DNA of 64,000 nt from Raillietiella orientalis (Eukaryota). Where the stretch lies: positions 434,001 to 498,000 of the forward strand of contig JAYWIR010000049.1 in the NCBI GenBank assembly GCA_036172245.1, in the 5' to 3' direction. Positions 11,577 to 43,900 of the stretch are shown piece after piece; position 1 is the first letter of the stretch, and every line of letters begins with the position of its first letter. Both the position numbers and the translations under genes were made by a program. The notes under the pieces are model-generated. The model searched no databases and had not been told where the DNA came from. It was given only the letters and a program-made list of their open reading frames with translations.

Positions 11577-12651
11577 GTCGGTTCGGTGGTCCGTCAGGCA
11601 GCAATGCCACACACGACCACCAGGTGAGTGACGTGAGCGACAGGGGGTGACGGCCACGTCGCCCTCGGAGACGATGGAGGTGGGGGCATCCGGCCCCACA
11701 GAATCGCTCCCCACTGCGGTGCCAATGCAATCAAGCTGCTCTTGTGCAGCGGCTCCTCCTCACTCCCTTGTCCATCCGCAGGAAGAAAGTTTTCCCATTG
11801 CGCTGGACGAATTTTTTGTCGTGCAACCCTCAGACGTCGAGCCGGAGATCAGCGACAAACATTTGATCGACGCGTTGGCGGAATTCGCCACCGTTCACGC
11901 GTTGTGGAGGAAGCTGAGTTCCTATGAGAAATTCCCTTCCGTCCACTGCGGAATTGCTTCGGTTAACCGTTCCTAAACATCTCACGATACCTCCGCAGCT
12001 ACGGGTCAACGGCACGGTCGTTCACGTGTGGTTCGCAGGCAAAGCTCGCGCGTGCGAGCAATAGGGAAGCGCATCGAGGGATGAAGCGCAACGAATGTCT
12101 TCTCCGAAGTGCCGTTATTTCAAGGAGTCCGGGCACGATTTCAGGAATTGCCTGGATCTTGCAAAAAAGGAGGAGGCAGAAAAGCTCCGTCGCGCTCCCT
12201 TTCGCGCGGCGGAGAAGAAAGCTGTCCCTAAAAAAGAGGTGAACACGTGGGAGACCGGGAAGAAAGTGCGACGGAATGAGACCTCTCAGCAGGCTTTCTC
12301 GCCCGCAAAGTCCCGAAAAGGCAATCGCGTGACAGGATAGCCCCACCGAAGAAAGGACCCAAGGGCTCCGCGCGTACCGCCACTGCTCCGGCTTCCGAAA
12401 GAGAAACAACCGTTCCGCGAATTGGGTCAGTGAAGCCTCCTACACCGGTTCACAGCTCGATCAGGGGGATCGCGGGAGAAGGGGATCGCGATAGCGCGGG
12501 AACCATCTCTTCTAGTCCGTTGTCCATTCCAGGGGCTTCGAAGACCACACACAAAACGACGGCTGGAAGCCCGGCAACGAAAGCCTGAAAAAGCAACGGC
12601 GCGTCCTTTAAAAACACTCCGCAAACAGCCGCACCCTCCCCAACGCGGCAG
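11577..12651 (+). mobile_element. LINE ORF1 5' part: family C-like start (to ~11720) joined to family A-like ORF1; left half of host 1 of the family B insertion
   Basis: 11580-11720 matches 9063-9195 and 23222-23350; 11730-12651 matches 32645-33561; decayed knuckle CRYFKESGHDFRNC. Confidence 0.8.
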
Positions 12652-12748
12652 TTTTTCCCCTGTCCGACTTGCGGAGGGAGAATTTATTTATCTTAACACT
12701 TTAACAATGGTTACTCACTTTCAGTAATTACTCTTTTTCTTACTTTTC

Positions 12749-15700
12749 TCAATGTTCTGGAATCCTCTGGAAGATATCGCAGTACATCCAAGCTGGAATC
12801 CCTGCACAGCTTCTGATTCCAATTTCACTGTTCAGGAGACCTTTCAATATTTCCATAGCAGGCACCTGGCTCATTCCTGTCCGCATTTTGGCCCTCCTTA
12901 TTACGATCCTTTTGATAAAGAGGGCTATGGTTATGAGGACCATCGGGTTGTATCGGGGAACGTTGCCGTTCCCTTCGAACATCCCAGCGAGAATCTCCAT
13001 CTTCCTCAACGACTGCAAGTCTATCACCTGCTTTAGACTGGCCCAGTCTTGGCGCAGAGACGGGCGGATGATTACGTGAAGGGTGAGTATCTCTGATTCC
13101 ACATGCATTGCACTTCTCCTCCTGCGGATCTCCGGTCCAGTGTTTGGTTCTAGTGCCTCTCGGGATGCCACCGCGATAAAACATCAGCAGCTCATCCTGA
13201 GTGTCGGGTGGTAAGTCGCTCGTCCAGACCCTGGTTCCAACCGCCAGCGGTTCCACCTGGTGGCATCCGTATCGGTTGGCGGCCGCAGACAGAGCGCCGT
13301 CGTCGTCCGATTCCTTCATTATTGCTTCTCGTATGTTTTTCCTGGTTATCAGGCGCCAGCAGCTACATTTCTGATTGTCCAGATCTCTCGATACTTGTGG
13401 GTGAATCTTCCCACTATCTCCGTAGTTAGCCGATACAGCCGCATTTTTTGGCGATTGCCGCTTAACGCGAACTGCTCGCAGTCCTCTATGGTGATCATTG
13501 GATTCTCAAATATCCACTTCCTGGTGTCCGATGGGACGTGAAAAACCAGGGGATAATCCTAACCAGTTCGCTCTCCCGAATTTCCTTACTTCTAGGCACT
13601 ATTTTGAGGTGATGGGTGTTGACCAGTGCCTGTTTCCGTATCCAAGTAGGGTCGATGTTTCTCCACCGTCCTTGTTTGCCTATTAGGGCTAACATTAGGC
13701 CTCTCGAATTGTTGACCAACTGCAAGTAGGCTTTGTGCGCTGCATAAGGCCACTCATCCCATTTGGTGGCAAGATCAAGAATTTGTCGCACGTCCTGCAG
13801 ATCCATGAAATGCTCGAGCGATTTCATCCCGGTCCTGCCTTTGTCTCGCGGTCGGCACAAGAGTTTCAGCATGAGCCGTGGCTTAAACTCCCTCCATAGT
13901 ATTCTCCGCTGTAGTTGTTCCACCTGTTGGCACGTTTCTTCGTCCACTCGACAAAAGGCTTCTCCGAAGAGCATCTTAAAAAGGAGAACTCCGTTCCACA
14001 GGTTTGCCCTTCGCTTCAGGCAGAAGTCGAGTCGCACGTATTGTGCAACCTCTTTTCTTGTTTTCTCCAGGATTCCCTTCCACATTTCCTGCGAAGCCGA
14101 GTCATCGCCGATGTATACTCCCAGGTACTTGATGTTAGCCACTACTCGGAATCCTGCTTCCGCTAAAGCGGTAAGGTCCAGGATTCCGATGGGCAACAGT
14201 TGGGATTTCTGGGCGTTGATCTTCAAGCCCAGACCATTCGCCATCGATTGGACGAGACCAAGGGACTCATGCTGATCCTTGCCTTCCTTCAAGAAGAAGA
14301 GCAGATCATCCGCATACGCCAGGTGCGTCAATCTGTCGTCGTCAAGGCGTATTGCTTGGATACGGCCGCCATGGTGGACCAGTGACGAAACCGCTTCCGT
14401 ATAAACTACGAACAGCATCGGACTAAGGGCGTCTCCCTGACGGATTCCCCTTTCCATCCTGATGTCTGCCGTATCATTTCCGTTGATTCTTATTTTTCAG
14501 TACTGCCCTTCGAGATTCTTCTCCACGTAGTCGGCGAAGTATTCTGGCTAGCGCAGTTTCCTCAGAATCTTCATCAACATTCCATGGTCCACGGTATCAA
14601 ACGCCTTCTCCATATCCGTGCAGACCAGCACCAGGTTTTCGCCTATGTAGCGACTGTAACCTAACGTTGCTTGGACACACTTCACGTTGTCAGACATGCT
14701 GCGTCCGAGCACTGTGCTCGTCTGCATTGGAGAAATGGCGGATGGCATCGTCTTGCTTAAACGGTTAGCCCAGAGCTTGGCTAACCATTTGGCGTCCGTG
14801 GTCTTGATGGAGATGGGCCGCCATTGGATGACCTGAGTCGAGTCTCCTGCCTTAGGCAGCAGCCTCATTCGGCTCTCGTTAAACGACTCGGGAAGCTTCC
14901 GTTCTTCTTGGATGCGAAGCGTGAGCTCGCTGAACAACCGCAGGTAGGTTTCTAGGTACCGCTGGTAATGCGAGATTGGCACGCAATCAGGGCCTGCAGC
15001 CACGTCCTTGCGGAGTCCAGCGAACGTCTGCTGCACTTTTTCCATGGAGGTTTCTTCTTCTAGCCTTTCCTAGTGTTGCCGAGTGATTTGTTTCTGCAGG
15101 AATCGAAGAAAATCGTCCTGCTCGCTTCTTGACAATTCACGCCATCAAAAGTGAGGTGTAATGTTGGTAGAAGCCCTCCGCTATTGCTTCTGGCGTCTGT
15201 CGCAACTGGCCTTTGTGCTGGATGCAAAAGAGATCCGTTGAAAAATTTCTCTTCTCCTGCACCCCTATTCCCCCTTTTACGTTGCGGCAGACGTACCGGC
15301 TCTCGTACTGGCCCCAGTATTTGGAGAGCGAGAGATCCTGGATGTTTTGCACTTAGTAAGCTTTCTTCCTTATCTTCCTGTTTACGAATTGCGCGTTGCA
15401 GAATACGTGGATAGTGTGCTTTAATCTGTCCCATTCCTCGACTCTGAGGATTGTTTTTCGCGCAGGATCGTCTCGAGAAGTTCCTGGTGACAGGGAAGGG
15501 TTTCAAACCAGGAAGGCATACACATGAGTGCAGCCCTTGTACCTACTTGCTTCCGGGGGTTCTCCGTTCGCAACGTGAACTGCAGCAACGGGTGATCCGA
15601 GAGCAGAAACTGGGTGTCTCGGAATCGCTGCACGCGGTTCTCGACTTCTTGACTAAAAATTACGTGGTCGATTGGTTTGTGTTTGGCCGTTAGCCAAAGC

Positions 15701-16219
15701 AGTCCAAACTCGTCGGAGAGCTTCCGATACGCCACTTTTCCTCCGGTATCCCTGAACTGGGCACTGATTACCGGTATATTCAGATCGCCCACGATAGCGA
15801 CTATGTCCTTTGGTGCGACCTTGCAGCGCAGAAGATCCCGCACATCGATGCTTTTCCGAGTGGGGTCCGTAAACGTTGACCAGCAAAAGGTGAACTGCGC
15901 AGGACCAGGACATCCGAACTCCAACGATGCGGCCGGGCCACGGAGAAAAGGATTCCAGAACGGTGTGCGCGATCCTGTTCTTGATGAAGATCGCAACGTC
16001 CTTGGTCTGCCTCTCTCCCGGACTCAAGTACAATGTAGCATCCAGTCGCTGTTCGAGTTCGCGGCAGATCTGGTCGTCTGTTTCGTAGGTCTCTTGAAGG
16101 CAGATGATGTCCTCGCGCTCGACGTTACGCGCGATCCTTCTTTTTCCCTGGTCTCGCATCCCATTCACATTCCAGAAGGCAATCTTGACACTCCAGGAGG
16201 AAGACAGGAAGAAACACAT
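12749..16219 (-). pseudogene. B1 ORF2: APE endonuclease - reverse transcriptase - Cys/His motif, frameshifted
   Basis: WNVNG, ICLQET, VNVYGP, GDLN, IDHV, SDH; AAGPD, WRPISI, DMEKAFD, GIRQGDALSPMLF, YADD, KYLGV; CNACGIRDTH. Confidence 0.9.
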
Positions 16220-16231
16220 GGGCAATCACGT

Positions 16232-17655
16232 TTTAGGTCTTAATGTTCTGGTATTTTTCTGCTTTGGAGATCCCGTAGGCTTCTTCCAAACAAAAGTCTC
16301 CTCTCCCGTTTCGCTTCAAGACTCCACGGAATTTGTGATGTGTTCAGCTGGGGTTCCTTCTGTTATAACTACTCCGCGGCCTGCACGCTTTGTCGGCCTA
16401 AGAGAGAGCTCTTCTTGTTCCGAGGCTGCAGTTTTGGCTGTAAACGCCTCAGGGACCTCCTTTACTCGAAATTCGATGCGGTCGATTACTACCGCGGGTA
16501 AAGTTTTGCACTTCGGTGAGGACAGGAGCAACGGCTCTTCCTGTACTATCCTTTCCTCATTCTGTAAGGTGCTAAATTCCACTAGGGTGGATGCCTTTCC
16601 TTGACCCACCATTTGTTGCTTCTCCTTCTCAGTTACGCCCAATTCTTCCGACGTTGCTGAAACAGGAGAAAGTTCCTCGTTAACTTCTTTTCTCTTCCTT
16701 TTTTCTTTCTTCTTTCTTGCTTCCGTGGAGGATGCAGCCGCGCTTGTGCTGACTTCCCCTACTACTTTTTCTTCTTCTTTCCTTTGAATTGTCGGCAACG
16801 GGGAAATTCCCTGCGCATCGAGCCACTTCCAATATCTCGGGCATTCCCTCTTGACGTGTCCCGATTCCTTGCAGTGGTGACACTGCGAAGACTTCGTGCA
16901 GGCTTTGATAAAATGACCATGCTGACCACATTGGAAACAGCATGTTCTCGGACATGCACCTAGGCCAAACTGCTTACATCCAGCGCAGAATGTGGGCTGC
17001 ATACGGTATCGTACCAGCACGTGTTGAGAGTATCTATACAGACTTCTCCCGGGATCCTCGCGTCTTCAAACATCCTGATTCTGGCCATCACTTCTCCGGT
17101 GTACACTCCCGTCATTAAATGACGAAAGTAGGTCTTCTGCACTTCTCCGTATTGGGAGAAAAAATCCCACACAACCACTTGCTCCATAAAGCCACTAATC
17201 CCCGTTAAAAACACGGAGGTGTAACTGACCTCTCCCATTCTGCGCAGGTGACGTCCATTTATGACTATACCATGTTCCAGAACCATTTCCTGGAGTTCTT
17301 CATTACTAAAGTAGATTTTGAAACCGACTGAACTTGGAATGATGGCCTTAACATCGTTAAAGTTCATCTTCCTTTCTTCCTTCCTTCCTGCAACGCGACA
17401 TAAATGTCCCTGACATCCTGTATTTTAAACATGCCTGTTTTAAAGGTCACTGTGTTTACATCTGCTTCCATCTTTCACATGGGTTTTTCACTTCACTTCA
17501 ATTACGGCGGGCATTGCTCTTCTCCCCATCGTCAGTGCTGAAATGTCTGAAGTCGTTGACTGCGCCATCACCGCTGCATACGAACGGATCGGAGATGCTG
17601 CTCCGGACGCCACCGCGGTTACCTCCTTCGGCGGCCCCGGTGGGTAAGTCTGCAT
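16232..17655 (-). pseudogene. B1 ORF1 nucleic-acid-binding protein, frameshifted
   Basis: SYAAV motif, RRM-like segment, knuckles CFQCGQHGHFIKAC and CHHCKESGHVKREC, charged C-terminal tail. Confidence 0.85.
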
Positions 17656-17770
17656 GATGTTTTCCTTTGCCTCTCGGAAACGATCTCCTCGGGTCCTCCT
17701 TCTTCTTCTTAGGCGTCTGTGAGTTTGAAATGTACAAACAATTTCGGAGCACACGCAAGGTTAGCACTAC

Positions 17771-19267
17771 CTCAGCAGAAAAGCAATCTCCCGACTGCCG
17801 CGGAGGCAACGCCATTGCTGTCTTTTGAGGGCGCAGGGAAAGCTGTGCACCAGGCACTGTGAAATCAACCCCAGAGGTGCCCGCGACGAAAGTCGCGAAT
17901 CCCTCCGAGGAAAGCGACGACAGATGGACGGTTGCGGAGAGGGAGAAAGGCAAAATCTCCGGAGAATGCTGCGCATCTTCCTACCCTGAACCTTTTCAAG
18001 GCAAGGAACACTCGCGCGAAGGTTGCTTGTGCCTTAACAAAAGCCGCTGCCGTCGTCGAGTGCAACGCGAAAGCTGCGCTCACTGGGAGCGATGCTCCGG
18101 TGACCGCAAAGAAGGGAAAAACTGTGGGATCATCCACAGACACTTCCGAATCGACGCAGCATGTTAAGTGCCAATCTCTCGTGCGTCAATCAGACTCCGA
18201 AACGGAGTCCGATGCAACCGCTGACCGGCGCATCACACGAGCGGAGGCGGTAGCGCTCCGCGCTAATGCCTTCAGGCGCGAAGCTCACGCCGCGAAATAG
18301 CCAGAGGCTGCAGCTGCAAGCGACGTTACTCGGAGACGATCACTCGGTTGCGTGCAGCACCTTGGAAGACGGTGGCAACCGCGCCCTTCAACGTGTCGTG
18401 CTGCTAACTGTCCTCTGGCCCCAGGAGGTGAGCAACACGTCCCCAGTTTCCCAGCCCTGTTGCGAGGAATCGCGTCTTCTCGTCGTCTGTCCGTCGCTCG
18501 TTGGAACGTGAACGGTTTGCAGAACGACGAGAAAAGGTTTTCCCGGTGGTAGCGAACGCTTTGCGCCCTTTCGACCTCGTGTTCCTTCAGGAGACACACG
18601 TAATCTTTGGAGAGCAGGCTGGGGAAATCGAGAAGCTCGCAGGCGGAGCGCTGATTTGGAGGTGCGGGACGCACATAGTGCGGAGTTGCGTTCCTCGCAA
18701 GACAATTGGGGATGCGGTGCGTAGCGTTTGTTTGACAATGACGTACGGGTGGGCCAACTTGTCATCAAGTGACCCGAGTCCATCGCTCTCGTCGTGACGA
18801 ACATCCACGCGACGAGTGCCTCTCCCTACCTCGCCGAGAGAATAGAATTCTTTGGAGAGGTGAAGAGCCACTGGCACAACATCTCCGGTCCCAAAGTGGC
18901 GCACCTCGTAGCGAGGGACTTCAACGTCCGGCTGCTTTCTGACGATTGGGGCTTTCCCAGGGAAGGTTTGCTGGCCATCGAGATGTTGGCGATAAGTGCA
19001 CGCTGCCAACTCGAAGGTCAGCGTACTTGAGATGCCAAAATCGCCGGATCACATCTTCCTCGATGAAAACCTGCACTCTAGGGTGAAAAGGAGAGAAAGA
19101 TTTACGTCCGGACTTTCTGACCATCACAATTTGGAGTTTGCGCTCCTTCCGCCAGGCAAGGGGCCTCCCTTGAACAACTGGAGGATGCCGGCGAACTGGC
19201 TGAGCGATCCGGAGGCGGAGGAACATCTCCGTCAGCACCTACGGAGCTTCGTCATCAGCGAACTCGC
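17771..19267 (+). mobile_element. Right half of host 1 (family A-like): ORF1 end and ORF2 endonuclease
   Basis: Homologous to 41000-42500; WNVNG, FLQETH, RDFNV, PDHIF, SDH. Confidence 0.85.
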
Positions 19268-20632: not shown

Positions 20633-21133
20633 CGGAATACAAAGCGGGAGCCGAGAGTCAAGCCAGCCAATCCGAATCGGCCAGCTTGCTGGACGATCAG
20701 GGTCAAGAGCACTCGGCACTCACGCAAATTCGCGGTCTTCTGCGGTGGTTTTATTCCTCCCTGTACGCAAGAGCGCCTCCGGAACGGGATGTCTCACGAC
20801 TTCTACTTCCGGAAGGCGCTCCAGCGATCGCAGAGGAGGAGCGAAGGACCCTCGACGAGCCTTTCACGATAGGCGAGATCATCTTGTCCATCAGAAAGCT
20901 CAAGAGGCGCAAGGCTCCAGGGGAGGACGGCCTGCCTGCAAAGTTTTATGAAGCTTTCGCAGCAGAGCTTACCCCCCTGGTGCATCAATTCACCCTGCTG
21001 ATCCGCGAAACAGGTGACGTTCCTGCCTCGCTTCGCTAGGCAAAGGTGAGGCTCCTTCTAAAGGAAGGAGATCTGAGGAGCACGGACAACTGGCGTCCCA
21101 TCACAATAGTGAATGTGGACGTCAAGTTGCTAG
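20633..21133 (+). mobile_element. Family D-like ORF2 fragment (EN-RT linker, start of RT)
   Basis: KAPGEDGLPAKFY, NWRPITIVNVDVKLL; closely similar to 45800-46300. Confidence 0.85.
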
Positions 21134-23149
21134 TTGCCACCCGGTCGCGCCGGGGCGTTTATTATAAATTCCCTATGATTCGTGGTACTAGGCCTTACTA
21201 CGGCCAACACAACAGGACCTGCCGGGTCGCTGGTACGCAGACCGGCTCTACTCTCCTCCGTAACGGAAGGAGATGGGGGAAAAAACAAAAAGAAAAATAA
21301 AAACAGAAAAAAACAGAGATTTGGGAGGACGAGGAAACGATCACTGTCCACTGGGAGGAGGATCCATCCTTTTAGGATGCTCTCGAAGTCCATCCGTACA
21401 ATTGGGCTATCTGGTCGCAAGCCGCAGGTGGCGGAAAGCAAGGTCGACGGCATCCCTCTCGTGGTTTGGTCTTCTGACTTCGCTCCAGCACGTCATGATC
21501 CCTCGGACGCAGTGCTGCCAGGGCTGCGACTGGTCTCAGGACATCCTGCACGAAGAGAAGCCGAAAAACGCCTCTGGGCTGGCTGCCCACCTAGATCCGT
21601 AGGGAGGCACCAAGACGCTCCCAGAGAATTCGGAGGACAGCACAATCAACAATGAGGTGGGAGAAGGATTCCCGCTTACCACACCTGATGCAGGCGGCAT
21701 TCACTCGACCCCGTGTCTAGTGGAGGCGGCGTGAGTTGCGTAAGCGCCGACTCGTGCCACTTCAGGGGAAGGATCCTCGACCCAATTAAAACTGGCAGCC
21801 ACTTCAGGTCATCTGTCGGGATGCCGGGCAGCTCGCCCTATCTCAATAATCCTCGCGGGAGGACTCTTCGGGTCGTGGCGTGGGCCAGCTGCCCCATGGT
21901 TCAACCACTCATCAGCTTCTCTCTGCCCCCGATACGGCAGGCGACTTGCCACTGGGCAGCGCCCTCCTCAGGAAGGGCATCACCGTAGCTAGGGGGTTGT
22001 CTCTGCTTACGTGCTCCTTGCGGGACACTCCAGTATTTTCCGCAGAGTGCAGCGGGCGTAGGCGCCATGTCGCAGACAGTTCCACTTCTCGTAACTCCTC
22101 TCATTTATCTTCGTCTACGTGCCAGTTGTCTCCTCCAGCCATGCGGAGGAGTTGGCGGGCTGCATGCCATCCAGCCGTTCTCCTTAGCCAGGGTGGCTAT
22201 GCGTCCCAGGAGAAGGCCGCATCCTTTGATCTTCCGACCACGGCACAGAAGATACGACGCGAGACCTTGCGTCCCGGATACACCGCTGGCAAGGAGGCGG
22301 GCCGGAACGCAGGGGTGCTCCATAACTTCGCTGCGATGGCCATGTTGCGCCATTGCAGCTGGATCTCCATTCGCTCCAGCGTCAGGAGACCGAGACTGCC
22401 ATCCCGACACGGAGCACACAAGTCCTTCAGTGCGACTCGGGACCTCCCTCTTCTCTAAAGGCCGATCCTAGAGAGGTCCTTCGTCCGTTTCTTCAACAGG
22501 GGCGAGACGAGGCAAACAAAAAGTCGGCGGCGAAGGATGGGGGCCGCGAACGCGTTGCACACCGCAGCCCGTTCCGACAAGAGAAACTTGCCTTCCAAGA
22601 TCGGGTCGATCGCCAACTCTACTTTTCGGACACGATCTGACCAGGCTTCTGCGAGGTAGAATTCCTTCAAAGGGATGCCCAGGTACCCCAGGTACTCGGC
22701 CGCGGGGATCCTCAAGCGGATCCAGCCAGCTCGTCCAACCCACGTCGCACCAACCGCCACCACCGACGACTTTGCCTTGTTCACCCGCAGTCCGGTCCTG
22801 CGGCTTAGCAGATCAAAGAAGTCCTCGATTGCGGCTGCCAGGGTGGACATGGCAAACAAGAGCAGAACATCATCGGCGTACACCGATACGGCGGGCGAAC
22901 CGGGGCACGAGCTCGGCAAGGCAGCCAAAGTCACCCTCTACGCTCTCAGCATCAACTCGAAGTAAAGAGCTAAAGAGCACCGTATGACCCACCGCACCGG
23001 CACGCCGTAGACCATTTGACTGCTGCAATTGAAGTTTAGTCTCACACTGCGCCAGCAAGAGCTCAGATAGGTCAGTAGGGAAGGTGGGAAGCACATGCGA
23101 TCCAGGAGCTCCAGCAGAAACTCCTGGTCCACGCAGTCGACCGCCTTGC
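21134..23149 (-). mobile_element. L1/Tx1-type LINE, 3' half (KAFD motif to 3' end)
   Basis: KAVDCVDQ, YADD, YLGYLGIP; terminal motif at 21138-21163. Confidence 0.85.
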
Positions 23150-24284
23150 TTGTGTGGGGTGGACGCGTTTTTTTGATGCTCCTTGGTGCCGAAAACCCTC
23201 CCCTTAAAGCAAAGTGTTCTGTGGTTCGGTGGTCGATCAGCCAGCAATGCCTGACACGACCACAAGTGAGTTCCAGGGGGCGGCGGCAACGTCGGCCTAA
23301 GAGGCGATGGAGATAAGGGCATTCACCCCCACAGAATCGGTCCCTACTGCAGCGCGGGCGTGGAGCGCCGTCTTAGCGACACTAACGCCTGCAGCCGCAG
23401 CGGAATTGAACGCCTACGTGGAGGAGGGGTATAACCCCTCACTACTCTACAAGGTAGGCAATCTATATTGTCCCGAGAGTGCGCGCCACTTTTACAAGGC
23501 TATGCACGCTCTCAACGTACAAGAGGAAGAACTCTGCGCGATGACCATCCGCAGCGGGGCGCAGTACGTAAAGGTGATCTGCAAACAGGCAGATCTGGCC
23601 CATCGTCTGCTCAAAACCCCCGTGGTGATGGGGAAACGCAGGTTCTTCCCATTACGGTGGACCGCAGTATGGTGGTCCACCTGTTAGGTGTAACCGTACG
23701 GATGCGTCGGGAAATTGCACGCGCAGCGTTGGAAGAATTTGGAACAGTCCATGCGAAGTGGTCCAAACCTAGTCCCTTTGTGGACAGTACTGGACTGCAG
23801 TGTCACCTCACGACTGCACGCATCACCGTCCGAGAGGGCTGTTCTCTTCCCCACAAACTAGTGGTCGTCAGCAAAACGGTCGACATATGGTATGTGGGGA
23901 AGTCCAAATACTGCGGCTTCTGCAATACGTCGGGCCACCTCAAAAAGAGGTGACCCAACGTGTAGTGCCAGGTATGCGGGACAATGGGCCACACGCGAGA
24001 GGTGTGCCCACAGGCAGCTGTGCGCGTGGTGTCCGCAAGGAACGCCAAAAAACGCACCAGGCTGCTGCAAAAAAAGCTGGCGGCGAAAGCTGCCTCGAAA
24101 GCAGTGCTACCCGCACCCGAGACCCGGCGAACAACGCCGAAAAAGTCGAGGGGAACGCCCAGAAGCCTGGCTGGCAGGTGGCAACGTCCAAAAATTCGAA
24201 GAAACAACGACACTTGAAAAGAAACTCGCCTACCGAAAGAAAAACAGGAGGGTAGCGAGATCATTAAAGTATGCAGAGTCGTCG
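23150..24284 (+). mobile_element. Family C LINE 5' end: 5'UTR and ORF1 (ATG 23247), truncated
   Basis: Homologous to 8991-10020; decayed CCHC knuckles. Confidence 0.85.
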
Positions 24285-32205: not shown

Positions 32206-33720
32206 ATTTTAACGTTCTCTTTCACGAGAGACGGACATGCATTTGTGTCGCTCTGCTCCTAAGCTGTTTGGTTGTGCTTGTGCGTCCCACTGCTTAGTCC
32301 TAAGGATGAGCAGTGGTGAAGACAACTTGGAAGTCGTCGAGCCAGTGGTTCCTGAACTTTCCGCAGTTGGAACGATGGCGACAACCTTTGCGAGCCCCGC
32401 GCCACCGGCCAGGAGCTTCGCGGACGTGGCAGCATCTGCAGCCGTAAAGGGGCGACTCCCCGACCAGGCAGAGTGGCAGGCATATGTAGCCCAGGGCTAC
32501 AAACCTGCTCTCCGCTATAATGTAAGTGGGGTAGGCTTAGCTGGGCAGGAGTTCGAAGACGAACTCTTCCGTGTGGGAGTGCGAGAGGAGGACCTGCTAG
32601 CCCTCATGCCTGTTCTTGCATTGGGCTATGTTAAGGTCCGATGCCATCAGGCTGCCCTTTTGCAGCGGCTCCTCCGCACTCCCTTGTCCATCCGCGGGAA
32701 GAAAGTTTTTCCCTCCGCGATGGATGGACGAGTCTTTTGTCGTTGTTCTTTCGGACGTAGAGCCGGAGATCAACGACAAACAGTTGGTGGACGCGTTGGC
32801 GAAATTCGCCACCGTTCATGCGGTGTGTAGGAAGGGGAGTTCCTACAAGAAGTTCCCTTTCTTCCACACAGGATTTGCTGCGGTTAGGATAACCGTTCCC
32901 AACCGCCGCACTCTGGCTGCTACGTTACAGGTCAAGGCACGGTCGTTCACCTGTGGTTCGCAGGCAAAGCTCGCGCGTGCGAGCAATGCGGCAGGGAAGG
33001 AGATCGGGAGCAAGAATGCCCTTCCCCGAAGTGCCGCTATTGCAAGGAGTCCGGGCACGAAATCAGGCAGTTCCCGGACATTGCAAGAAAGAAGGAGGCT
33101 GCTAGACTCCGGCGCGCCAAAAAAAGCGCAGAGTAGCAAACAGCAGTTTCTAAAAAACAAGTGGACTCGCGTAAGCTCGCGAGAAAACAGGGCAGGAACG
33201 TAGTCCCTAAGTCGGCTTCCTCTGCCGCAAAGCCCGAAAGGGCAATCGGGCGGCAGGGAAGCCTATTAAAAAAGGACGCGAGGGCTCCGCGCGTGCCGTC
33301 ACTGATCCCGCAGCCGAAGGCGGAGTTACCGCTCCGGGAATGGGGTCAGTGAAGCCAGTTACACCGTGCGACAGCGCGAAAGGGGGACACGCGAATCGCA
33401 ATTGCGCAACAACCATCTCCTTGGGCCCGTTGTGCATTTCGGGGACTTCAATAGGAAACCCAAAAAAGGCGGCTCGGAATCTGGCGAGAAAACCCAGGAA
33501 AAGCGGAGGCGCGTTACTTGAAAACACGCCGCAACCAGTCGCATCCTCCCTAACGCAGCAGTTTTCCCCAATTCCCACAAGGGGTGGGGTAATTGATTGT
33601 TCATTTATACTACATTCACATTCACTCACTCGAAACTTTTGTTCCGCACTTTTCACTTCACTTCACTTTCACTTGGGGAGTGACCGGGGGAAGTTTACCG
33701 TGGGTATGCACTTGGGAGGA

Positions 33721-36700
33721 CTACGTATGGGTTCTTCCCTGGACGCTATTTTCTATCCTACGTAGGATATACTTGTATGTCCAGAATTGCACTTTGCCGC
33801 AGTTCCATATTCCAATTTCCTTCTGGACGAGTCCTTTCAGGATGTCCATGGGGGGTGCAACCTCTCTGGAATTCTTCATCTTCCACCATCGTATCAGGAT
33901 GGCAGTGATGAAGAGGGCAATCGTCATCCTAGCCATCGGGTTGTACAGAGGTACGTCGCCGTCTCCTTCTCCGTGCTAGGACTTTCGTGATGGTAGCGTC
34001 GGGCAGTCCTATGACCCTTTTCAGGGTCTGCCAGTCCTGGCGGATGGTGGGACACGTTGGGACGTGGAGTCTTGTTTCCCGGTCACCACACGCCTTGCAC
34101 TTTCCGTCTTCCGTGTTCCCTGTAAAGTGTTGGATCCTTGAACCACTCTGAATTCCTCCATGGAAGAATCTCAGGAAATCATCCTGAGTATTCGACGGTA
34201 GGTCACTCCTCCATAGTGGCGTGCCGATCGCCAACAGGTTGATACTGTGGCGATCGGCAGCTTCTTGGAGGGCACTGATGTCTAGATTGTCCTCTTTAAT
34301 GATTTTGCGGAGGTTTTTCCTATCTATCCTGTACCACGCGAAGTTGTTGTGGTTTTTCCACAACTCGCGGGTCTTGTGGGTGCATTTTCCCAACACCATC
34401 TCGATGTACCGGAGTATACGAGAATGGTGAAGCTATCCTCCTCTTCTCCATTCCTGGATTCTTTTTAGAGTAACTCTGGGCCGCTGGTAGATCCAGCTTC
34501 TTGTGTCGGGAGGCACGTGAAGCATCCAGGGGATCACTAGGATGGACTCCTCCTGCCAGTTTCCTGCTTTGTGGTACGATCTCCAGTTGGTGTTTTCGTA
34601 CCAGCTGTTGTTTTCTTTTCCAGGTGGGATCGATGGTGTTCCACTTCCTTCTCGGCCTAGCAGCGCAGTCATCGGGCCCTTCGAGTTGTTCAGTAACAAT
34701 GAATAGGCCCTATGCGCCGCATGCGGCCAGTCATCCCAGTGGGCGGCGATCTCCAGGATTTGTCGCGTATCCATGATTTCCATGCAATGTGCAGGCGACT
34801 TCATCCCGGTCCCACCTTTCTCCTTGGGACGACATAGCGGTTTCAGTCTTGCTCTTGGTCTGTAGATGCTCCATAAGATTTTCCTTTGCAACCTCTCCAA
34901 TTCTCTGCGGGTGTTCTTGTCCATTCTGCCAAAGGCCGCCCCGAAGAGTATCTTCGGACGGATTACTCCGTTCCACGGGTTGGCCCTCCGCTTCATGTTG
35001 AAGTCCGTCCGCGTGTACTTCGTTGCTTCTTCTGCTGCCTTTCCCAGGATTTCGATCCATAGCAGCTTCGACGCGGAGTCATCACCGATGTGGACTCCCA
35101 AGTACTTGGCGCTGTCCACCGTTAGGAATGCTTTCTCCGTGAATGAGGAGAGTTCCAGGATTCCGTCGGGCAAAAGTTGACTCTTCTGGGCGTTGATTTT
35201 TAGCCCAAGTCCTTTCTCCATCATCTCCACCACATCCAGGAACGCATACGGATCTCGTTCTTCCTTGATGAAGAAGAGAAGATCGTACGCGTAGGGCAGA
35301 TGAATGAGTTTTTGATCGTCGATCTTGATCCCTCGGAGGCGTCTGCTTCTTTCAATGAATGATGTCAAAGCCTCCATGTAGTTAACAAACAGCATCGGAC
35401 TCAGCGAGTCGCCCTGGCGGACTCCTCGTTCCATCCTGATAGCTGCTGTTTCTACTCCGTTGATCTTGATACGAAAGTGTTGATCGACTAGTATCATTCT
35501 CACGAAGTTGCTGAAGTGTTCCGGGAGACCCACTTTTCCCAGAATCTTTAGCAGCATCGCGTGGTCGATGGTAACGAATGCCTTCTCCATGTCGGTGAAC
35601 ACCAGCACCAAGTTCTCGCCGACATATCGGCTGAGTCCCACGGTGGTCTGGGCACACTTGACATCGTCCGACATGTGGCGTCCGGGCACCGCGTATGTCT
35701 GGACTGGAGAGATTAACTTCGGCATGACCTTGCCTAAGCGGTTGGCCCAGATCTTTGCCAACCACTTGGCATCGAAGTTGAAGATTGAGATTGGCCTCCA
35801 TTGGGAAACTTTGGTTAGGTCTCCACCTTTCGGCAGCAATCTCATCCTGCCCTCGTAGAAGGACGCAGGTAGTCTGCCTTTTTGTCGGATGCACAGAGTT
35901 AGCTGGTGGAACAGACGCAGGTAGTCGTGTAGGTATTGCTGGTAGTAAGAGATGGGAACATTATCAGGTCCTGCCGCCACATCCTTGCGTGGTTCCGAAA
36001 ATGCAGCCTTCAATTCGAGAAATTTTCTTCCAATTTCTTTCGCTGGAGTTCATCGATCTTCTTCTCTAAGTGGCTCAGAAAAGCATTTTGTGTCGCCGGG
36101 CACAGGCGTTGGTGCCGAAAGTGTCCCGTGTAATGCCTCTGGAAGGCGCCCACGATCTCTTCCGGCGTGTGCCGGCTGTGGCCGTCGTACTGGATGCAGA
36201 AGATGTCTGTTGCCAGGTTCTTCTTCTCCAGCACGCCGACTTCCCGTTTTATGTTCTTGAAGACGTACCGGCTCTCGTACTGGTCCCAGTACTTGGAGAG
36301 GGAGCGGTCTTCGATGTTCTGCTCCCGGTACGCTTCCTATCTCAGTCGCTTGTCCCCGTACTGCATGTTGCAGAACAGATGGACTCGATGTTTCAGGCTG
36401 TCCCAGTTGGCGACTCTTTGGATGGTGCTGGTCCTCAGAATCGCCTCGATGAGTTCTTGATGACTGGGAAGCGTCTCCAACCAGGCGGGCATGCAGATGA
36501 GCACCGCCCTTGCGTTCTGCTTCCGTCGAGGATTTTCGGTTCTTAGGGAGAACTGCACCAGCGGTTGATCAGACAGCGAAGTTGGAGTGTCGCGAAAACC
36601 CCCGATGCGGTTCTCTAGCTCTCTGCTGTGTAGGACGTGGTCGATCGGCTTGTGGCTAGCTGTTCGCCACCGAAGTCCGAACTCGTCGGACAATCGCCGA

Positions 36701-37210
36701 TACGCCGTCCTTCTTCTTGCGTCCTGGGAATAGATGATGCCGTCCAGGATATTCAGATCGCCAGCAACGATCACGACTCCTTGGGTGCGACCTTCTCCCG
36801 GAGTGCTGCATGCAGCACCTCCGCGCACCGGTGTTTTTCGATGTGTGGTTCGTACACGTTCACCAAGAAAACGTAAACGGTGGGGGACCACGCCAGTCGT
36901 ACACCGATGATTCGTCCTGGTATGCGACAGAAGACTTCCAGGATTGTGGGTCCAGGTCGTTGTTCATCAGCACCGCCACTCCATCGGTGTTCCTCTGTCC
37001 CTCGCTGACGAACATTTGCATGTTGAAGCGTCGTTCCATTTGCAAGGTGATCTGATGACCCAGCTCGTGGATCTCTTGCAGACACACTTGTCCGAGGTCT
37101 TCATGGGCGATGATCCGCACGATTCTTTTCCTTTTACTCTGGTTGATCAGTCCATTAACGTTCCAGGAGGCCATGTTGATCCTCCTAGCGATGGACAACG
37201 ACGAGGCCAT
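33721..37210 (-). pseudogene. B2 ORF2 EN-RT-Cys/His, frameshifted; RT open over 34433-36013
   Basis: WNVNG, VCLQEIH, GDLN, IDHV; WRPISI, DMEKAF, GVRQGDSLSPMLF, YAYD (mutated YADD), KYLGV; CKACGDRETRLHVPTC. Confidence 0.9.
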
Positions 37211-37219
37211 AAGGGGGCT

Positions 37220-38781
37220 CACTTAGCTTTTCTGAGCTTCTTTTGTCGGGAAGAACGTTGTAATCTTCCCGACGAAGAATCGGGCTTCTCACTACCAGCA
37301 TCGCTCTCCGTGCCGGTATGATCGGTCAATTATCGGTCGTCGATTGACCGGTCGACTTTGACGACCGCCTTGCACGGGAGGGTCTCCACGTTGACCTTCT
37401 CGCAGTACGCCGCCTTGACTTCAAAAAGCTCAGTCTCCAGCTTTTTGCCCTCAGAAACCTCTACCAATCTGTTGATGTCCTCTTGGACCTCGCAGATGCG
37501 AGCCAGAATCTGTTCCTGCTGCACCGCGGTAGGCTCCTGTCGGACCTCCTCTACCAGCTTCACCACCTCCATGGTGAGCTGCAGGGTCTCTTGCGTCGCC
37601 GGGGTGGGTTCGCTAACTTCCATTTGTTCCCCATGTGGCGCGCCATCCTGCTCCGCGGCCTTCTGGGAGGGTTTCTGCTCCTGCACGAGCATACTCTTGC
37701 CGCCTTTTCGTACTTCTACAAAGCCGTCCGCCAAAACCGGAGCGGCCTCCTTCGCCTTCCTCAGCTTCTCTACTTTTTGAGGCTTTACCACTTCCGCCAG
37801 AACCTTCTCCCGCACGGTGGAGCCCACGCATGGTCCGGTAGTTTGTGAACTCCGGACAACACCATCTCGCATGCCCCGACTCTTTGCAAAAGGAGCACAC
37901 CTCGGGCATGTCGCAGCCACGCACCTGGTGTCCCTGCTTCCCACAGCGGAAGCACCGAGACCTCGGACACACGCTCATCCTATGTCCGAAATTTTTGCAA
38001 CCAGTACAGAACACCGGTTGTTGCCTATATCGGATGAAGACTTCCTGAGAGTCTCCATCGATGTGCACGATCCCTGGGATCTGCGCCTCCTTTGCCAATT
38101 TGATCTTGGCGATGACATCGCCGGAAAAGATCCTCCCCTAGAAGTTCTGGAATTTCACCTCCAGAACTTCCCCGTACCTCGACAAAAAGGCTCAGACTGT
38201 CTGCTGGGTGGTGGTGATGCCGATGCCACTGAGAAAGACGGTCGTGTACGGCATTTCGCCGATACCGCGAACCATCCGTCCTTGGATGTTGATGCCCTTT
38301 TCGGTCAGGGTCTCCCTCAAGGGTTCACTATCAGTGTACATCGTGAAGCCCGACGTGATTGGGATGATCGCTTGGATGCGATCGAAATCCACATTCTCCC
38401 TATAAAGTGTCAAGTACACTTCTTCAATATTGTCAAACTGGATTAGTCCGGTTTGGAAAGTGATTGGCTTCGATGCCGGACTGATCCGGAAGATCGGCTC
38501 GTCCACGTTCTCTATTTTCCCGCTCTCGGGCTTTCCAAATTTCCGCTGGGCATTCGAATGGACCGCGGCTACCGCCGCGTACGGAATTGGCCGCGCCGTC
38601 GCAGCGGAGGAAGATGGCGTCGCGACCTGCGAGCTCCCACCACATTGCATGCCGTAGGCTTCGCCGGGGGCGCTGCCGCGGGCGCAACCCGCAGCGACTT
38701 CGTCGCTTCGCCATCGCCGCACGATACCTCCATTCCCAGGGGGAATGTCGGTCTCTCCTCCATCGCGTGGTCTGCTTGCAT
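37220..38781 (-). pseudogene. B2 ORF1, frameshifted
   Basis: PYAAVA; three knuckles CTGCKNFGHRMSVC, CFRCGKQGHQVRGC, CSFCKESGHARWCC. Confidence 0.85.
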
Positions 38782-39005
38782 CCTGGCACTCTCTGGTTGA
38801 TGCACTCTCGCCGCCGTCGCTGTGGGACGCAAGCCCTCCTCTATGGTTCTGCTGCAGATGGTGGTAAATGTTCTCTGCCGCACTGTCCCTAGTGGTTGGC
38901 CACAGACACTGGTTTTCACTTATTCACTTCCCCGCTTGGGGCACGCAAAAATTGCCGCAGCAGTGATGGTGCTCACTGCCTTGGCGGGGTATTCGGTATA
39001 GTTTT

Positions 39006-39021
39006 TTCCTCGTCTCAGCAG
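39006..39021 (+). repeat. TSD TTCCYCGTCTCAGCAG (partner 41000-41015)
   Basis: 16-bp direct repeat with 1 mismatch flanking the deleted B1 copy. Confidence 0.85.
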
Positions 39022-40999
39022 TTTTTCCCCTGTCCGACTTGCGCAGGGGAGAATTTATTTATCTTAACACGTTTACAATGCTTTCTCACTTTCAGTATTT
39101 AATCTTTTCTCACTTTTCAATGTTCTGGAATCCTCTGCAAGATATGGTAGTATATCCAAGTTGGAATTCCTCCACAACTTCTGATTCCAATTTCACTGTT
39201 CAGGAGACCTTTCAATATTTCCATAGCAGGCACCTGGCTCATTCCTGTCCGCATTTTGGCCCTCCTTATTACGATCCTTTTGATAAAGAGGGCTATGGTT
39301 ATGAGGACCATCGGGTTGTATCGGGGAACATTGCCGTTCCCTTCGAAAATCCCAACGAGAATCTCCATCTTCCGCAACGGCTGCAAGTCTATCACCTTCT
39401 TGAGACTGGTCCAGTCTTGGCGCAGAGACGGGCAGGTGAGTACGTGAAGGGTGAGTATCTCTGATTCCACATGCATTGCACTTCTCCTCCTGCGGATCTC
39501 CGGTCCAGTGTTTGGTCCTAGTGCCGCTCAGAATGCCACTGTGATAAAACATCAGGAGCTCATCCTGAACGTCGGGTGGTAAGTCGCTCGTCCAGACCGT
39601 GGTTCCAACCACCAGCGGTTCCACCTGGTGGCATCCGTATCGGTTGGCGGTCACAGACAGAGCGTCGTCGTCGTTTGTTTCCTTCATACGTGCTTCTCCT
39701 ATGTTTCTCCTGGTTATCAGGCGCCAGCGGCTGGATTCCTGATTGGTCCAGACCTCTCGATATTTGTGGGTGAATTTTCCAACTATCTCCGTGGTTAGCT
39801 GATACAGCCGCATTTTTTGGTGAATGCCACTTAATGCGAACTGCTCTCACTCCTTTATGGTGATCCTTGGATTCTCGGATATCCATTTCCTGGTGTCCGA
39901 TGGGACGTGCAAAAACCACGGGATAATCCTCATTAGTTCGCTCTCCCAAATTTCCTTACTTCTAAGCACTATTTTGAGGTGATGGGTGTTGACCAGTGCC
40001 TGTTTCCGTATCCAAGTAGGGTCGATGTTTCTCCACCGTCCTTGTTTGCCTATTAGGGCTAACATTAGGCCTCTCGAATTGTTGACCAACTGCGAGTAGG
40101 CTTTGTGCGCTGCATAAGGCCACTCATCCCATTTGGTGGCAAGTTCCAGTTGTCGCACGTCCAGCAGATGCACGGACCGTTTGAGCGATTTCATCCCGGT
40201 CCCACCTTTGTCTCGCGGTCGGCACAGGATTTTCAGCCTGACCCGCGGCTTAAACTCTCTCCATAAAATCCTCCATTGTAGTTGTTCCACCTGCCGGCAC
40301 GTTCCATCGTCTACTCGACAAAAGGCTGCTCCGAAGAGCACCTTAGGAAAGAGAACTCTGTTCCACAGGTTTTCCCTTCGCTTCAGGCAGAAGTCTAGTC
40401 GTACGTATTTTGCTGCCTCTTCTCTTGTTTTCCCCAGGATTCCTTTCCACATTTCCTGCGAAGCCGAGTCATCGCCGATGTATACTCCTAGGTACTTGAT
40501 GTTATCCACTACTCGGAATCCTGCTTCCTCTAAGGCGGCAAGGTCCAGGATTCCGATGGGCAACAGTTGGGATTTCTGGGCGTTGATCTTCAAGCCCAGA
40601 CCATTCGCCATAGATTGGACGAAACCAAGGGACTCATGCTGATCCTTGCCTTCCTTCAAGAAGAAGAGCAGATCATCCGCATACGCCAGGTGCGTCAATC
40701 TGTCGTCGTCAAGGCGTATTGCTTGGATACGGCCGCCATGGTGGACCAGTGACGAAACCGCTTCCGTATAAACTACGAACAGCATCGGACTAAGGGCGTC
40801 TCCCTGACGGATTCCCCTTTCCATCCTGATGTCTGCCGTATCATTTCCGTATCGTCCCCGGGGGGTACGTCTCCATGTTGTTTTCCTGTGCCTCCTGGCA
40901 ACGGTCTCCTCGTATCCTCCTTCTTCTTAGTCGCCTGCTAGTATTTTTCAAAAAAAAAAAGCACAAACAATTTCGCAGCACACGCAGGCTAAGCACTAC
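39022..40999 (-). mobile_element. Family B1 internally deleted copy: ~150-bp 5' end joined to the RT-3' half at 40850/40851
   Basis: 39022-40850 matches 12652-14482; 40851-40999 matches ~17630-17770. Confidence 0.9.
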
Positions 41000-43900
41000 T
41001 TCCCCGTCTCAGCAGGAGAGGAGCGATCTCCCGACTTGCTAGGAGGCTGTGCCATTGCCGCCTTTTAAGGGTGCAGCGAAATCTGCGCACGAGGCTGTTG
41101 GGGAGGAAAGCCCGGAGACGTTCTTGACGAAAGTCGAGGAACCCTCCGAGGAAATGGACGGCTTTTGGACGGTTGTGGAGAAAGAGAGAAAAGTAAAATC
41201 TCCCAAAAATTCTCCGCAACCTACTTCCAAGAGCCTCTGTAAGATAAGCAACTTCGAGCCAAGGTTCCCTCTGACGCTGCAAAGGCCAACGCCGCTATCG
41301 CGCATAGCGCGAAAGCTGCGATCGCCGGGAGCGATGCCCCGGTGACCGCGAAAAAGGGAGTGACCGCGGTTCCACCGCGAGCACTTCCGAATCGACGCGG
41401 CAGGTGAGTCGTGAAGCGCTCGAGCGTCGATCAGACTCCGAAACGGAGTCTGATATCACCGCCGCACGTCGGATCACCCACGCGGAAGCCGTAGCGAGAC
41501 GGGCTAATGCCCTGAGGCGCACAGCGCATGCCGCGAAGGAGCGAGAGCTCACCCCGGAACATCAAGCGACGTTACCCGGAGACGAGCACTCGATTTCGTG
41601 CAGCACCTTGGAGGACGGTGGCGACCGTGATCTCCAGCCACACTGCTGCTTACTGTCCGCTCGCCGGTGAAAACGGGCAAAAAGCCGCCGACTTCCCAGC
41701 ATTAATGCGGGAAATCGCGTCTTCTCGTCGTCTGTTCGCCGCGTGTTGGAACGTGAACGGACTGCAGCACGACTAGAAGAGGCGATTGGTAGCGAACGCC
41801 CTGTGCCCCTTTGACCTCACGCTCCTGCAGGATATTCACGTAATCTACGACGAGCAGGCAGCCGATTCGAGGAACGCTCAGGCGGAACGCTACTTTGGCT
41901 GTGCGGCGGCCCATACACGTGCGGCGTCGCGTTCCTCGCAAGAGGAAAAATGGCGGAAGCGGTGCGTGGTGTTCGCTTCGACGACGACGGATGGGTGGGC
42001 CCACTTGCTGTCAAGTGGTCCGTGTCCATCGATCTCGTCGTGACGAATATCTACGCGCCGAGTGGCTCTCGCTACCTCGAAGATGGAATTGCGCTCTTCG
42101 AGGAAATGAAATGCCACTGTCTCAACAACTCCAGTTCCCAAGTGGCGCACCTAGTCTCAGAGGACTTCAACGTCCATCTGCTCTCTGACGGAAGGAGCTG
42201 CCCGAGGGAGCGCAAGTTGGCCATCGAGATTGGTCGGCGTACCTGAGATGGTCGGCGTACCTGAGATGGAAAGGTCGCCGGATCACATCTTCCTTGATGA
42301 CAACCTACACTCTTGTGTGAGAAGGAGAGACAGATTGTCGTTCGTACTTTCTAACATCACAGGTTGGAGTTCGAGCTCCTTCCTCCAGGCAAGAGGCCTC
42401 CGTTGAGAAACTGGAGGATGCCGGCGGACTGGCTTAGCCATCCGGAGGCGGCGGATCATCTTCGTCAGCACCTCCGGACCTTCGTCATCCGCGAACTCGA
42501 GGACTGGGATCATCTAAAGAGATCAGTCCGCGAGTTCTGCGAACGGTTTCCCTTGAACCGGCTTCCGCGAGGCTTTGGAGAAGGGGTCGCCAACAGCAGG
42601 ACTTTTCTGCAGGCGCGCACCTTTCCGAGACGCGCGGATGTCAGCCAGCTTGCGGAATACAAGGCCAGAGTCGAGAGCCAGGTCTGGCAGTCTGGAGTTT
42701 CATCAGGGCTTTGCGGCGGAGCTCGTCCCCCTGGTGCTTAGCCTCTCTTCGCTGATAAGGGTTTCAGGGCATCTCTCCAATTCCTTCCGCTCAGCGAGTG
42801 TGCGTCTCCTGCCTGGAGACACACGCCATCTGAACAACTGGCGTCCGGTCACCTTGGTGAACTCAGACTTCAAGTTGTTCTCCAAACTGTGGGTCGCGCG
42901 ACTAGGAAGGATCCTTGGTAAGGCCGGAGCAGACTTACGCTGTTCACGGGCGGTCCATGGACGAGAACCTCCTGTTCTCTTGCTCCTGGATGCAGCTGCA
43001 GGAGCGCGTAGCGTAGCAAAGCCGGACCGTGTCAAAGGCTGCTGCCTAAGACAGACGGTATCGGCAAAAGCGGCAGGAGGGTACGCCTGGTGCCTTGAAG
43101 GTCGCAGTCGATCTCCACAAGGGGTTCGATTGCATAAACCAAAGACTCCTCTTGGAGCTCTTGGAACGCCTCGGTCTCCCGGCGCAACTTTTGAATTACT
43201 TGCGCGCTTGCTGACGCCACGCGCTAACCTGCATTTCTTTTAGCGGCTGCCACGTGTACAGTATTCCCGTGCGCAGGGGCATCAGGCAGGGCGACAGTTT
43301 AAGCCCGTTGCTCTTCAGCATCTTCTTTTAGTTCGTGCTGAGGGCGTACAGGCTGACGCTGGAGTACCCGCCTAGCTCTTGCCCGGAAACGCTTCCCGTG
43401 GCTGCCTATGCAGATGACCTGCTTCTTCTGCTCCTCATGTGCACCCCAGCGTCCAGTATCGAAGATTTCTTCGAACTGATTCGTCGGGGAGCGGGCGTGA
43501 GCGTGAACAGGAAGAAGAGCGTGGTCGTTCCTGTGAGAGAGTCGTGAGAGGGGCAGTCCGACTGGATCTGCCTGGGGATCCCCACGGCAGGGTACTTCAA
43601 GTACCTTGTCGTTCTGCTGAGCGACCTCGGCGATGCCGAGGCGTGGTCGGACGGCCTTCATAAGACAGAGTTGGCCGCCACTCCCTTCATTAATGGCAAG
43701 TTTACCTTGACGAAACGGGAGTCTCTTTGGAACACCTTCGTGCCCCCTCTCCTCCTAAGACCCCTGTTTTTTCTCTTGGACCCCCCCTACGCGGCCAAAG
43801 AGCGGGCAAAACACCTGCTAAGGAACGCTTTCTGAGATCCGACGCGATCCAGGATCCGTCTCAGAGACCTGACGGCTCCACGTTGGGATGCCGGTCTTCG

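Follow-up and report, generated by a model that had tools for sequence, protein, structure and literature searches.

Can a long interspersed nuclear element (LINE) use a defined position in another LINE as its insertion site? This question is raised by a stretch of 64,000 nucleotides (nt) from Raillietiella orientalis (GenBank assembly GCA_036172245.1, contig JAYWIR010000049.1, positions 434,001 to 498,000 of the forward strand), in which members of one LINE family, here called B, are found inside copies of a related LINE family, here called A. We refer to this whole stretch as the window; the motif counts and self-comparisons reported below were made within it. A self-comparison of the window and a second, more sensitive one were used to delimit the loci, and they revealed two places with a common layout, in which the left part of an A copy is followed by B and then by the right part of A. 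Site-specific insertion of B into family A is the best explanation of this arrangement and, in our judgement, a probable one; the observation has good support locally but does not extend to the genome as a whole.

The host copies run along the plus strand and the B elements along the minus strand. At the first locus, the left part of host copy A1 (11722-12651) ends with ...CCAACGCGGCAG and abuts the 3' end (...GGGGAAAAA at 12652) of the full-length, decayed element B1 (12652-17770), beyond which the right part of A1 (17773-19266) begins with CAGCAG, followed by AAAAGCAATCTCCCGAC. At the second locus, the 5' part of host copy A2 (32216-33561) ends with ...CCTAACGCAGCAG and abuts the 3' end (...GGGGAAAA at 33562) of B2 (33562 to about 38981); B2 is followed by a further element, B3 (39022-40999), and by the right part of A2 (41016-45315), which begins with GAGAGGAGCGATCTCCCGAC. 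The hosts are homologous on either side of the inserts: 11722-12651 aligns with 32638-33561 (74.4% identity), A2 being homologous to A1 from 32638 on, and 17779-19266 aligns with 41016-42499 (75.8%). All three junctions at the 3' end of B are identical to the nucleotide, with the A sequence ...GCAG followed on the plus strand by TTTT(T)CCCC, i.e., the reverse complement of the B 3' end with its short A-tail (four to five A residues at each junction). B thus lies antisense to A in three of three insertions, at one position and in one orientation, in two A copies. An earlier note on this DNA had made the same claim; the three junction strings that it quoted are found exactly, at 12637-12660, 33547-33569 and 39007-39030, with all three 3' ends joined to ...GCAG.

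Sensitive blastn and tblastn searches detected no B sequence in the rest of the 64 kb, as the note had also stated, so that B sits only at two homologous A positions and at a regenerated copy of one of them. The hexamer CAGCAG occurs 91 times in the window and the 8-mer CGCAGCAG, discussed below, eight times, six of these away from the B2 junctions and devoid of B; short motifs of this kind are therefore not sufficient to attract an insertion. Chance nesting in a heap of LINEs, with no target preference at all, might be considered because the window is dense with LINE fragments, but chance would not be expected to bring three insertions to a single nucleotide position, all facing the same way, within two copies of an element several kb long, and the identity of the junctions refutes this idea to a degree that leaves it practically no weight.

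Do the three inserts represent separate events? The B elements fall into two well-diverged subfamilies, as previously claimed: the 3' part of B3 (39022-40850) is 92.8% identical to B1 (12652-14483) over 1825 nt, while B1 and B2 can be aligned only across the reverse transcriptase (RT), where they share 65.8% of their nucleotides and 55% of their amino acids (aa; tblastn). The Kimura two-parameter (K2P) distance between B1 and B3 is 0.076, and their differences are spread evenly over the three codon positions (0.098, 0.089 and 0.112), as expected from decay after insertion. Between B1 and B2, the RT mismatches per codon position amount to 0.31, 0.26 and 0.49, and over 497 RT codons pN is 0.265 against a pS of 0.67, which puts dN/dS at about 0.19; synonymous sites are close to saturated. 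This synonymous-biased divergence implies that the two lineages parted long ago as functional elements and still used the same nucleotide of A. The host flanks, in turn, are separated by K2P distances of 0.30-0.32; their mismatches have no codon periodicity, so that the host copies look old and neutrally decayed, and their identity is not raised beside the junctions, which argues against both co-duplication and conversion. On the strength of these sequence comparisons, the three B insertions are independent and derive from two lineages.

A single ancestral B insertion, duplicated with its host at the DNA level and with the B parts homogenised or replaced by later gene conversion, would be the obvious alternative. 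DNA-level duplication is indeed evident here, as a 1.44-kb segment of A2 is present twice (30776-32215 and 43876-45315, 99.2% identical), and A1 and A2, besides lacking codon periodicity, have stop codons in common and could descend from one dead copy: over 2.4 kb and counting all frames, 19 stops stand at aligned positions, including the TGA at 12431-12433 and 33350-33352. A1 and A2 may thus have arisen from one already dead A copy via DNA duplication and not by separate retrotranspositions. Nevertheless, B1 and B3 are far closer to each other than their hosts are, B1 and B2 are far less alike and diverged under the synonymous bias given above, A2 contains two B elements with separate junctions, B3 possesses a 16-nt target-site duplication (TSD) of its own, and the host identity beside B is not elevated. 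Co-duplication is therefore largely refuted and, in our view, very unlikely. The earlier note had named one insertion duplicated with its host, together with neutral B1/B2 divergence, as the situation that would contradict its proposal; what is found is the opposite on both counts. Since diverged A-like copies are numerous and closely spaced in this cluster, B might likewise have spread without any targeted nicking, through conversion or homologous recombination of empty with occupied A copies. The flanking A sequence would then have travelled along with B, yet the A sequences that border B1 and B3 match at only about 75%, as far as the junction itself; moreover, the B3 TSD includes sequence that is not A, and a short A-tail is present at the junction. 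We find such a mode of spread hardly credible.

The TSDs allow the order of events at the second locus to be read. The 16-nt TSD of B3 (TTCCYCGTCTCAGCAG) is present as a left copy at 39006-39021 (TTCCTCGTCTCAGCAG) and a right copy at 41000-41015 (TTCCCCGTCTCAGCAG), which agree at 15 of 16 positions. Counted on the sequences, it matches the left flank of A2 (CTCCCTAACGCAGCAG) at only 10 of 16 positions; hence, B2 was inserted first and B3 afterwards, and the reverse order was rejected because the B3 TSD is unlike the A2 left flank. B1 is bordered by a 6-nt TSD candidate with one mismatch (CGGCAG at 12646-12651 and CAGCAG), and B2 by CGCAGCAG at 33554 and 38956. With respect to B2, it should be noted that B1 and B3 hold the like words CGGAGCAC and CGCAGCAC, respectively, 18 nt from their own 5' ends and thus at the same spacing as the CGCAGCAG of B2. 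For this reason the right-hand CGCAGCAG may be an internal motif of the 5' untranslated region (UTR), with B2 reaching to about 38981, the point indicated by homology to the 5' UTRs of B1 and B3, and not ending at 38955 as assumed in the earlier note. The TSDs described in that note were consequently upheld in part: the B3 16-mer (15/16) and both occurrences of CGCAGCAG are real, while the 'exact' B2 duplication may be no duplication at all. A target-like word is in fact seen in all three B 5' UTRs (plus strand: CGCAGCAG at 38956-38963, CGCAGCAC in the region of 40987-40994 and CGGAGCAC in the region of 17758-17765); these words resemble the left half of the A target, which could be a coincidence or a relic of flank capture.

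A mechanism that would account for the junctions can be outlined as follows. The integration machinery of B would recognise one defined sequence in the related LINE family A and would place the first nick in the A sense strand, right after ...CGC(A/G)GCAG and before (A/G)A(A/G)AG..GC(A/G)ATCTCCCGACT. The freed 3'-OH would then prime reverse transcription of the B RNA (target-primed reverse transcription); priming from a nick in the A sense strand would leave B always antisense to its host, with the short A-tail next to GCAG. A 3' A-run and a TSD, the hallmarks of this process, can be recognised in B. The cut in the second strand would be variable in position, yielding TSDs that range from about 6 nt in B1, and probably in B2, to 16 nt in B3. 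Such a TSD would restore CAGCAG and the right-flank half of the site at the 5' junction of the element, so that a second element could enter there. In A2, the TSD of B2 would have restored CAGCAG beside the A2 right flank, and B3 would have nicked there to form the tandem pair, its TSD being composed of CAGCAG plus 10 nt of the B2 5'-junction sequence. We suppose that the specificity is carried by the endonuclease, by analogy with what has been published for Tx1L; in addition, base pairing may take place between the nicked ...CAGCAG end and a read-through 3' RNA (..AAAAACUGCUG). The left context of B3 did not come from A, and what is recognised is therefore probably, for the most part, CAGCAG together with the A sequence 3' of the nick, i.e., the side downstream in A.

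How long the recognised sequence is matters for the main rival explanation, according to which B recognises a short or degenerate motif (e.g., GCAG plus a stretch rich in purines), or another sequence present in many copies, that A merely happens to carry; the majority of B copies in the genome would then be expected outside A. Conservation between the three events is limited to about 8-20 nt around the nick, the left context of B3 is not A sequence, the A1 and A2 sites differ directly 3' of the nick, and the data come from one 64-kb window; a shorter or different true target would be revealed only by a genome-wide view. Against such a target stand the A right flank that is present at three of three insertions, the absence of B from the many CAGCAG hexamers and from the six unoccupied CGCAGCAG 8-mers, and the retention of the position by two B lineages with saturated synonymous divergence. 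We consider this explanation improbable, albeit to be taken seriously. Several points weigh against targeting of A by B and need to be set out together. The TSDs of B1 and B2 are short (6-8 nt) and the 5' end of B2 is ambiguous. The difference between A1 and A2 immediately 3' of the nick (AAAAGCAATC versus GAGAGGAGCGATC) means that the recognition sequence is not defined. The sample consists of three insertions in one window in which, furthermore, DNA-level duplication has taken place. The contiguity of the left and right parts of A is deduced from two occupied copies: neither of the two site-bearing A copies in the window offers an empty site, and the A-like copies A3 and A4 and the smaller fragments do not contain this region. 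Finally, a 34-nt stretch between the homologous 5' end of B2 and the CAGCAG site (38982-39015; its first 24 nt are 38982-39005) has no other match in the window; it may consist of additional nucleotides at the 5' junction, or B2 may reach further at its 5' end. With these reservations, we continue to favour site-specific insertion of B into A.

Where in A does the site lie? A is a LINE with zinc knuckles to the left of the site and with an apurinic/apyrimidinic-type endonuclease (APE) and RT to its right. In A1, the knuckles are located at about 12050 to 12140 and the APE motif WNVNGL at about 18502, and the A3 endonuclease also matches the right part of A1 in tblastn. A2 has an ATG at 32306 in the frame of its knuckles (about 32975-33077), WNVNGL at about 41747 and RT at about 42521-43727, the latter regions being decayed by many stops and frameshifts. 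Its open reading frame 1 (ORF1), as read from this ATG, has three premature stops before the TGA at 33350, and a TGA in the knuckle frame is common to A1 (12431) and A2 at aligned positions. The B site follows 209 nt (A2) or 218 nt (A1) past this shared TGA, and WNVNGL about 730 nt further on; the assertion of the earlier note that the site lies within ORF1 is thus not established. The frame that it had followed across the inserts is not that of the knuckles, although in A2 this frame does run through the reconstructed empty site for 226 codons, interrupted by a single stop. At this base composition the chance of such an open frame is estimated at about 0.003 for one frame, and because of this the site is probably coding. 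To judge from two decayed copies, it may belong to a middle ORF, to ORF1 continued through a frameshift, or to an ORF2 extended at its N-terminus; in any case B splits A between the zinc-knuckle ORF and the endonuclease. A comparison of the A region after the site with the ORF1 tails of B1 and B2 gave no significant homology, and a shared 'DGF..V' motif was dismissed as a mere resemblance, the alignment being not significant. Taken as a whole, the proposal of targeted insertion into another LINE that we followed up stands within the window, with three independent same-site events, and has to be amended with respect to the ORF1 location and the B2 TSD.

What kind of element is B? Its ORF2 has the order APE endonuclease, RT and C-terminal Cys/His motif, and WNVNG(L/M) is found at the ORF2 start in the translations of B1 and B2. 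B1, delineated from Pfam matches, translation and junction sequences, has RVT_1 matches at 13498-14496 and 14551-15069 (RT overall 13498-15069), an Exo_endo_phos (APE) match at 15656-16225 (1.1e-08), and an ORF1 with three CCHC knuckles at 16319-17065 (zf-CCHC in Pfam, and translation); its ORF1 ATG is near 17658, its 5' end reads ...GTAGTGC at 17770, and its 5' UTR is short (about 115 nt). B2 represents the second lineage and is the best preserved of the B copies, with a 538-aa RT ORF (RVT_1, 34436-36049, 5.6e-28), an APE region at 36340-37222 that is 34% identical to the APE of B1 (tblastn) and whose Exo_endo_phos span (36340-36963) falls slightly below the Pfam curated cut-off, three CCHC knuckles read in the translation at 37616-38137 (zf-CCHC likewise slightly below the cut-off), and the N-terminal part of ORF1 at 38195-38923.

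B3 is a B1-type element with an internal deletion. In addition to the 3' part compared above, which includes RVT_1 at 39850-40926, its 5' 147 nt (40853-40999) are 79% identical to B1 17632-17770 and retain the ORF1 start codon, and a counterpart of B1 14484-17631 is missing. B3 has no intact ORF, the ATG frame ending after 11 codons; either it is a non-autonomous derivative, or the deletion occurred once B3 had been inserted. The lower identity of the 5' part (79% versus 92.8%) may point to a recombinant of two B sublineages or to a faster-evolving 5' UTR. That B3 is a simple 5' truncation, so that the 140-nt segment (17632-17770 and 40853-40999) would be A sequence, was considered and rejected, because this segment holds the B ORF1 start codon, from which the frame runs on into B1, and because the 16-nt TSD of B3 lies outside it.

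Among solved structures, human L1 ORF2p is the best match for the RT of both B2 (2.8e-41) and A3 (4e-38), ahead of R2 (2e-21 and 2e-18), a comparison that is coarse since L1 and R2 are the only LINE RTs among the matches. The RTs of B2 and A3 are 30% identical, and in a database of 5.8 billion proteins no match of the B2 RT (24 and 22 matches, unnamed or generically named) exceeds 33% identity. A quickly built maximum-likelihood tree of 55 RT rows (50 database matches plus B1, B2, A2, A3 and A4) groups A with B (SH-aLRT 98), apart from L1-like rows of plants, vertebrates and fungi; its comparators were chosen by similarity to B2 or to a frog match and include no labelled Tx1 row, and two A rows deviate in amino-acid composition. 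Within the limits of this RT tree, A and B appear to be sister lineages, both of them L1-like. Placement of B in the L1 superfamily is supported by its APE-then-RT ORF2 and by an RT that seems nearest to L1 ORF2p, and an autonomous non-LTR (long terminal repeat) retrotransposon of this superfamily is the best explanation of its predicted coding capacity. A type I ORF1p is defined by an RNA recognition motif (RRM) together with one or more CCHC zinc knuckles (PMC5203782). Of these features, three CCHC knuckles could be read in B1 and B2; Pfam detected no RRM in B ORF1, and an AlphaFold model of the N-terminal part of B1 ORF1 was too poor (pLDDT 36) to reveal one.

The two host copies belong to a heap that extends from about 6.6 to 47 kb of the window and is made up of A-like LINE pieces lying in either orientation. 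Two better preserved A-like ORF2 parts are found here: A3 (28242-30590, minus strand; Pfam and tblastn) and A4 (45305-47231), which is 5'-truncated inside the endonuclease. A4 begins at the 3' end of A2 (...TTTTAACGT at 45315) in the same orientation, and such head-to-tail abutment of A-like LINEs hints that A may itself favour the ends of existing A copies. The additional copy of the A2 3' part (30776-32215) lies directly upstream of the A2 5' end; the junction at 32215/32216 reads ...TTTTAACGT and then TCTC.., without an A-tail. Part of A is thus repeated in tandem, head to tail, although A2 itself is heavily decayed; the arrangement could go back to conversion, to a recent duplication of the DNA or to a mode of insertion that generates tandems. 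At the 5' edge of A3, a 113-nt inverted repeat (30196-30308 and 30545-30657, 78% complementary) and a plus-strand endonuclease-like fragment (30263-30775; tblastn) resemble a rearranged or head-to-head junction, and near the expected 3' end of A3 a 71-bp unit is present as a tandem duplicate (26682-26823, 95% match). Further pairs of LINE fragments are 8223-9961 with 22374-24121 (76%) and 20634-21133 with 45802-46301 (88%).

The DNA around this heap is lower in GC (39-47%), and no gene was recognised there. The Pfam scan covered 126 ORFs of 130 aa or more, and a search for a host gene extended it to another 126 ORFs (70-129 aa) not belonging to the LINEs. Two weak matches, both under the cut-off, were all that this returned: UAA (5162-5398), whose translation was judged unconvincing as a gene, and zf-RVT (10770-11093). 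Rfam identified no family in the whole window, rRNA and tRNA included. Protein Atlas yielded nothing beyond generic RT clusters, a contig scan with a 22-nt junction word gave no match, and the single match (L001) of a metagenome scan with the 20-nt 3' end of B1 and B3 consists of the 21-nt seed alone and was dismissed as chance.

How retrotransposons find safe sites can be studied in sequence-specific LINEs, which serve as models of this process and as a basis from which tools for programmable insertion may be developed. Their published targets comprise multicopy host genes, microsatellites, telomeres, DNA transposons and LTR elements. If the interpretation of the window offered here is true, a LINE whose safe site is a related LINE would constitute a new class of target, would provide a natural setting for the limitation of one family of retrotransposons by another, and would lend itself, as a compact target, to work on how endonucleases of the L1 type become specific. 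One may go a step further and regard B as an obligate 'parasite of a parasite' that stems from the same LINE stock as A and, by dividing them in antisense between knuckle ORF and endonuclease, inactivates the A copies that it enters. The retention of one A site by two B lineages with saturated divergence would speak for a long and specialised association, and given its short 5' UTR, B might depend on, or provoke, antisense transcription of A; if this were true, a LINE-on-LINE arms race would be taking place within one genome. We think of this extension as rather unlikely.

How does B compare with known systems? Zepp nests in copies of itself. Zepp and ZeppL of green algae are L1-type LINEs that form nested clusters, as seen in this window; in contrast, the nick site of B is the sequence of a different family. 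Sequence of family A follows all three nick sites, and self-insertion is encountered only as B3 at the A site beside B2, with 10 nt of the B3 TSD coming from the B2 side. The R1 and R2 elements of 28S rDNA resemble B in their strict site specificity, in the repeated use of one site and in the occurrence of internally deleted derivatives that keep both ends, like B3 (PMC3414825). They differ in that R2 has a restriction-like endonuclease, R1 belongs to another APE clade and both target a host gene, whereas the RT of B is nearest to L1 ORF2p.

The targeting of one mobile element by another is a known strategy, and transposons are listed among LINE targets (PMC4640811). Members of the Tx1 clade, which is found in animals, target piggyBac, Mariner and Harbinger transposons as well as LTR retrotransposons (PMC4494074, Kojima 2015); Tx1-9_AMi, for instance, resides in Harbinger transposons, and Tx1-8_Crp and Tx1-4_AMi in LTR retrotransposons. 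The same work calls a LINE target-specific when one kind of sequence makes up more than 20% of its flanks; in the window, the same A target flanks three of three B copies at the same position. A LINE as the target of a site-specific LINE apparently has not been reported: we found none in the literature searched, although Repbase Reports, subscription reviews and the supplements of PMC4494074 were outside its scope and a prior report may exist. The closest parallels in behaviour are provided by the crocodilian Tx1-Mar families and SINEU-3, whose insertions in Mariner-N4_AMi stand at fixed positions and in one case run against the direction of the target; a 16-bp TSD, and tandem copies with a TSD sandwiched between them, are described there as well (PMC4494074). 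B shares with them the defined position and orientation in a transposable element, the TSD of this length and the tandem arrangement; their case rests on hundreds of copies and that of B on three, and the targets listed for the crocodilian families in the parts of that paper drawn on here are DNA transposons and LTR retrotransposons, with no non-LTR element among them. In the Xenopus laevis elements Tx1L and Tx2L, finally, an APE-type LINE of the L1/Tx1 group is, like B, devoted to one site of another mobile element; Tx1 sits in the piggyBac-type Tx1D, and its specificity has been ascribed to the endonuclease (PMC4494074, citing Christensen et al. 2000). The target of Tx1L and Tx2L is a non-autonomous DNA transposon (Tx1D and Tx2D), whereas that of B is a LINE of autonomous type and, apparently, a sister lineage of B itself.

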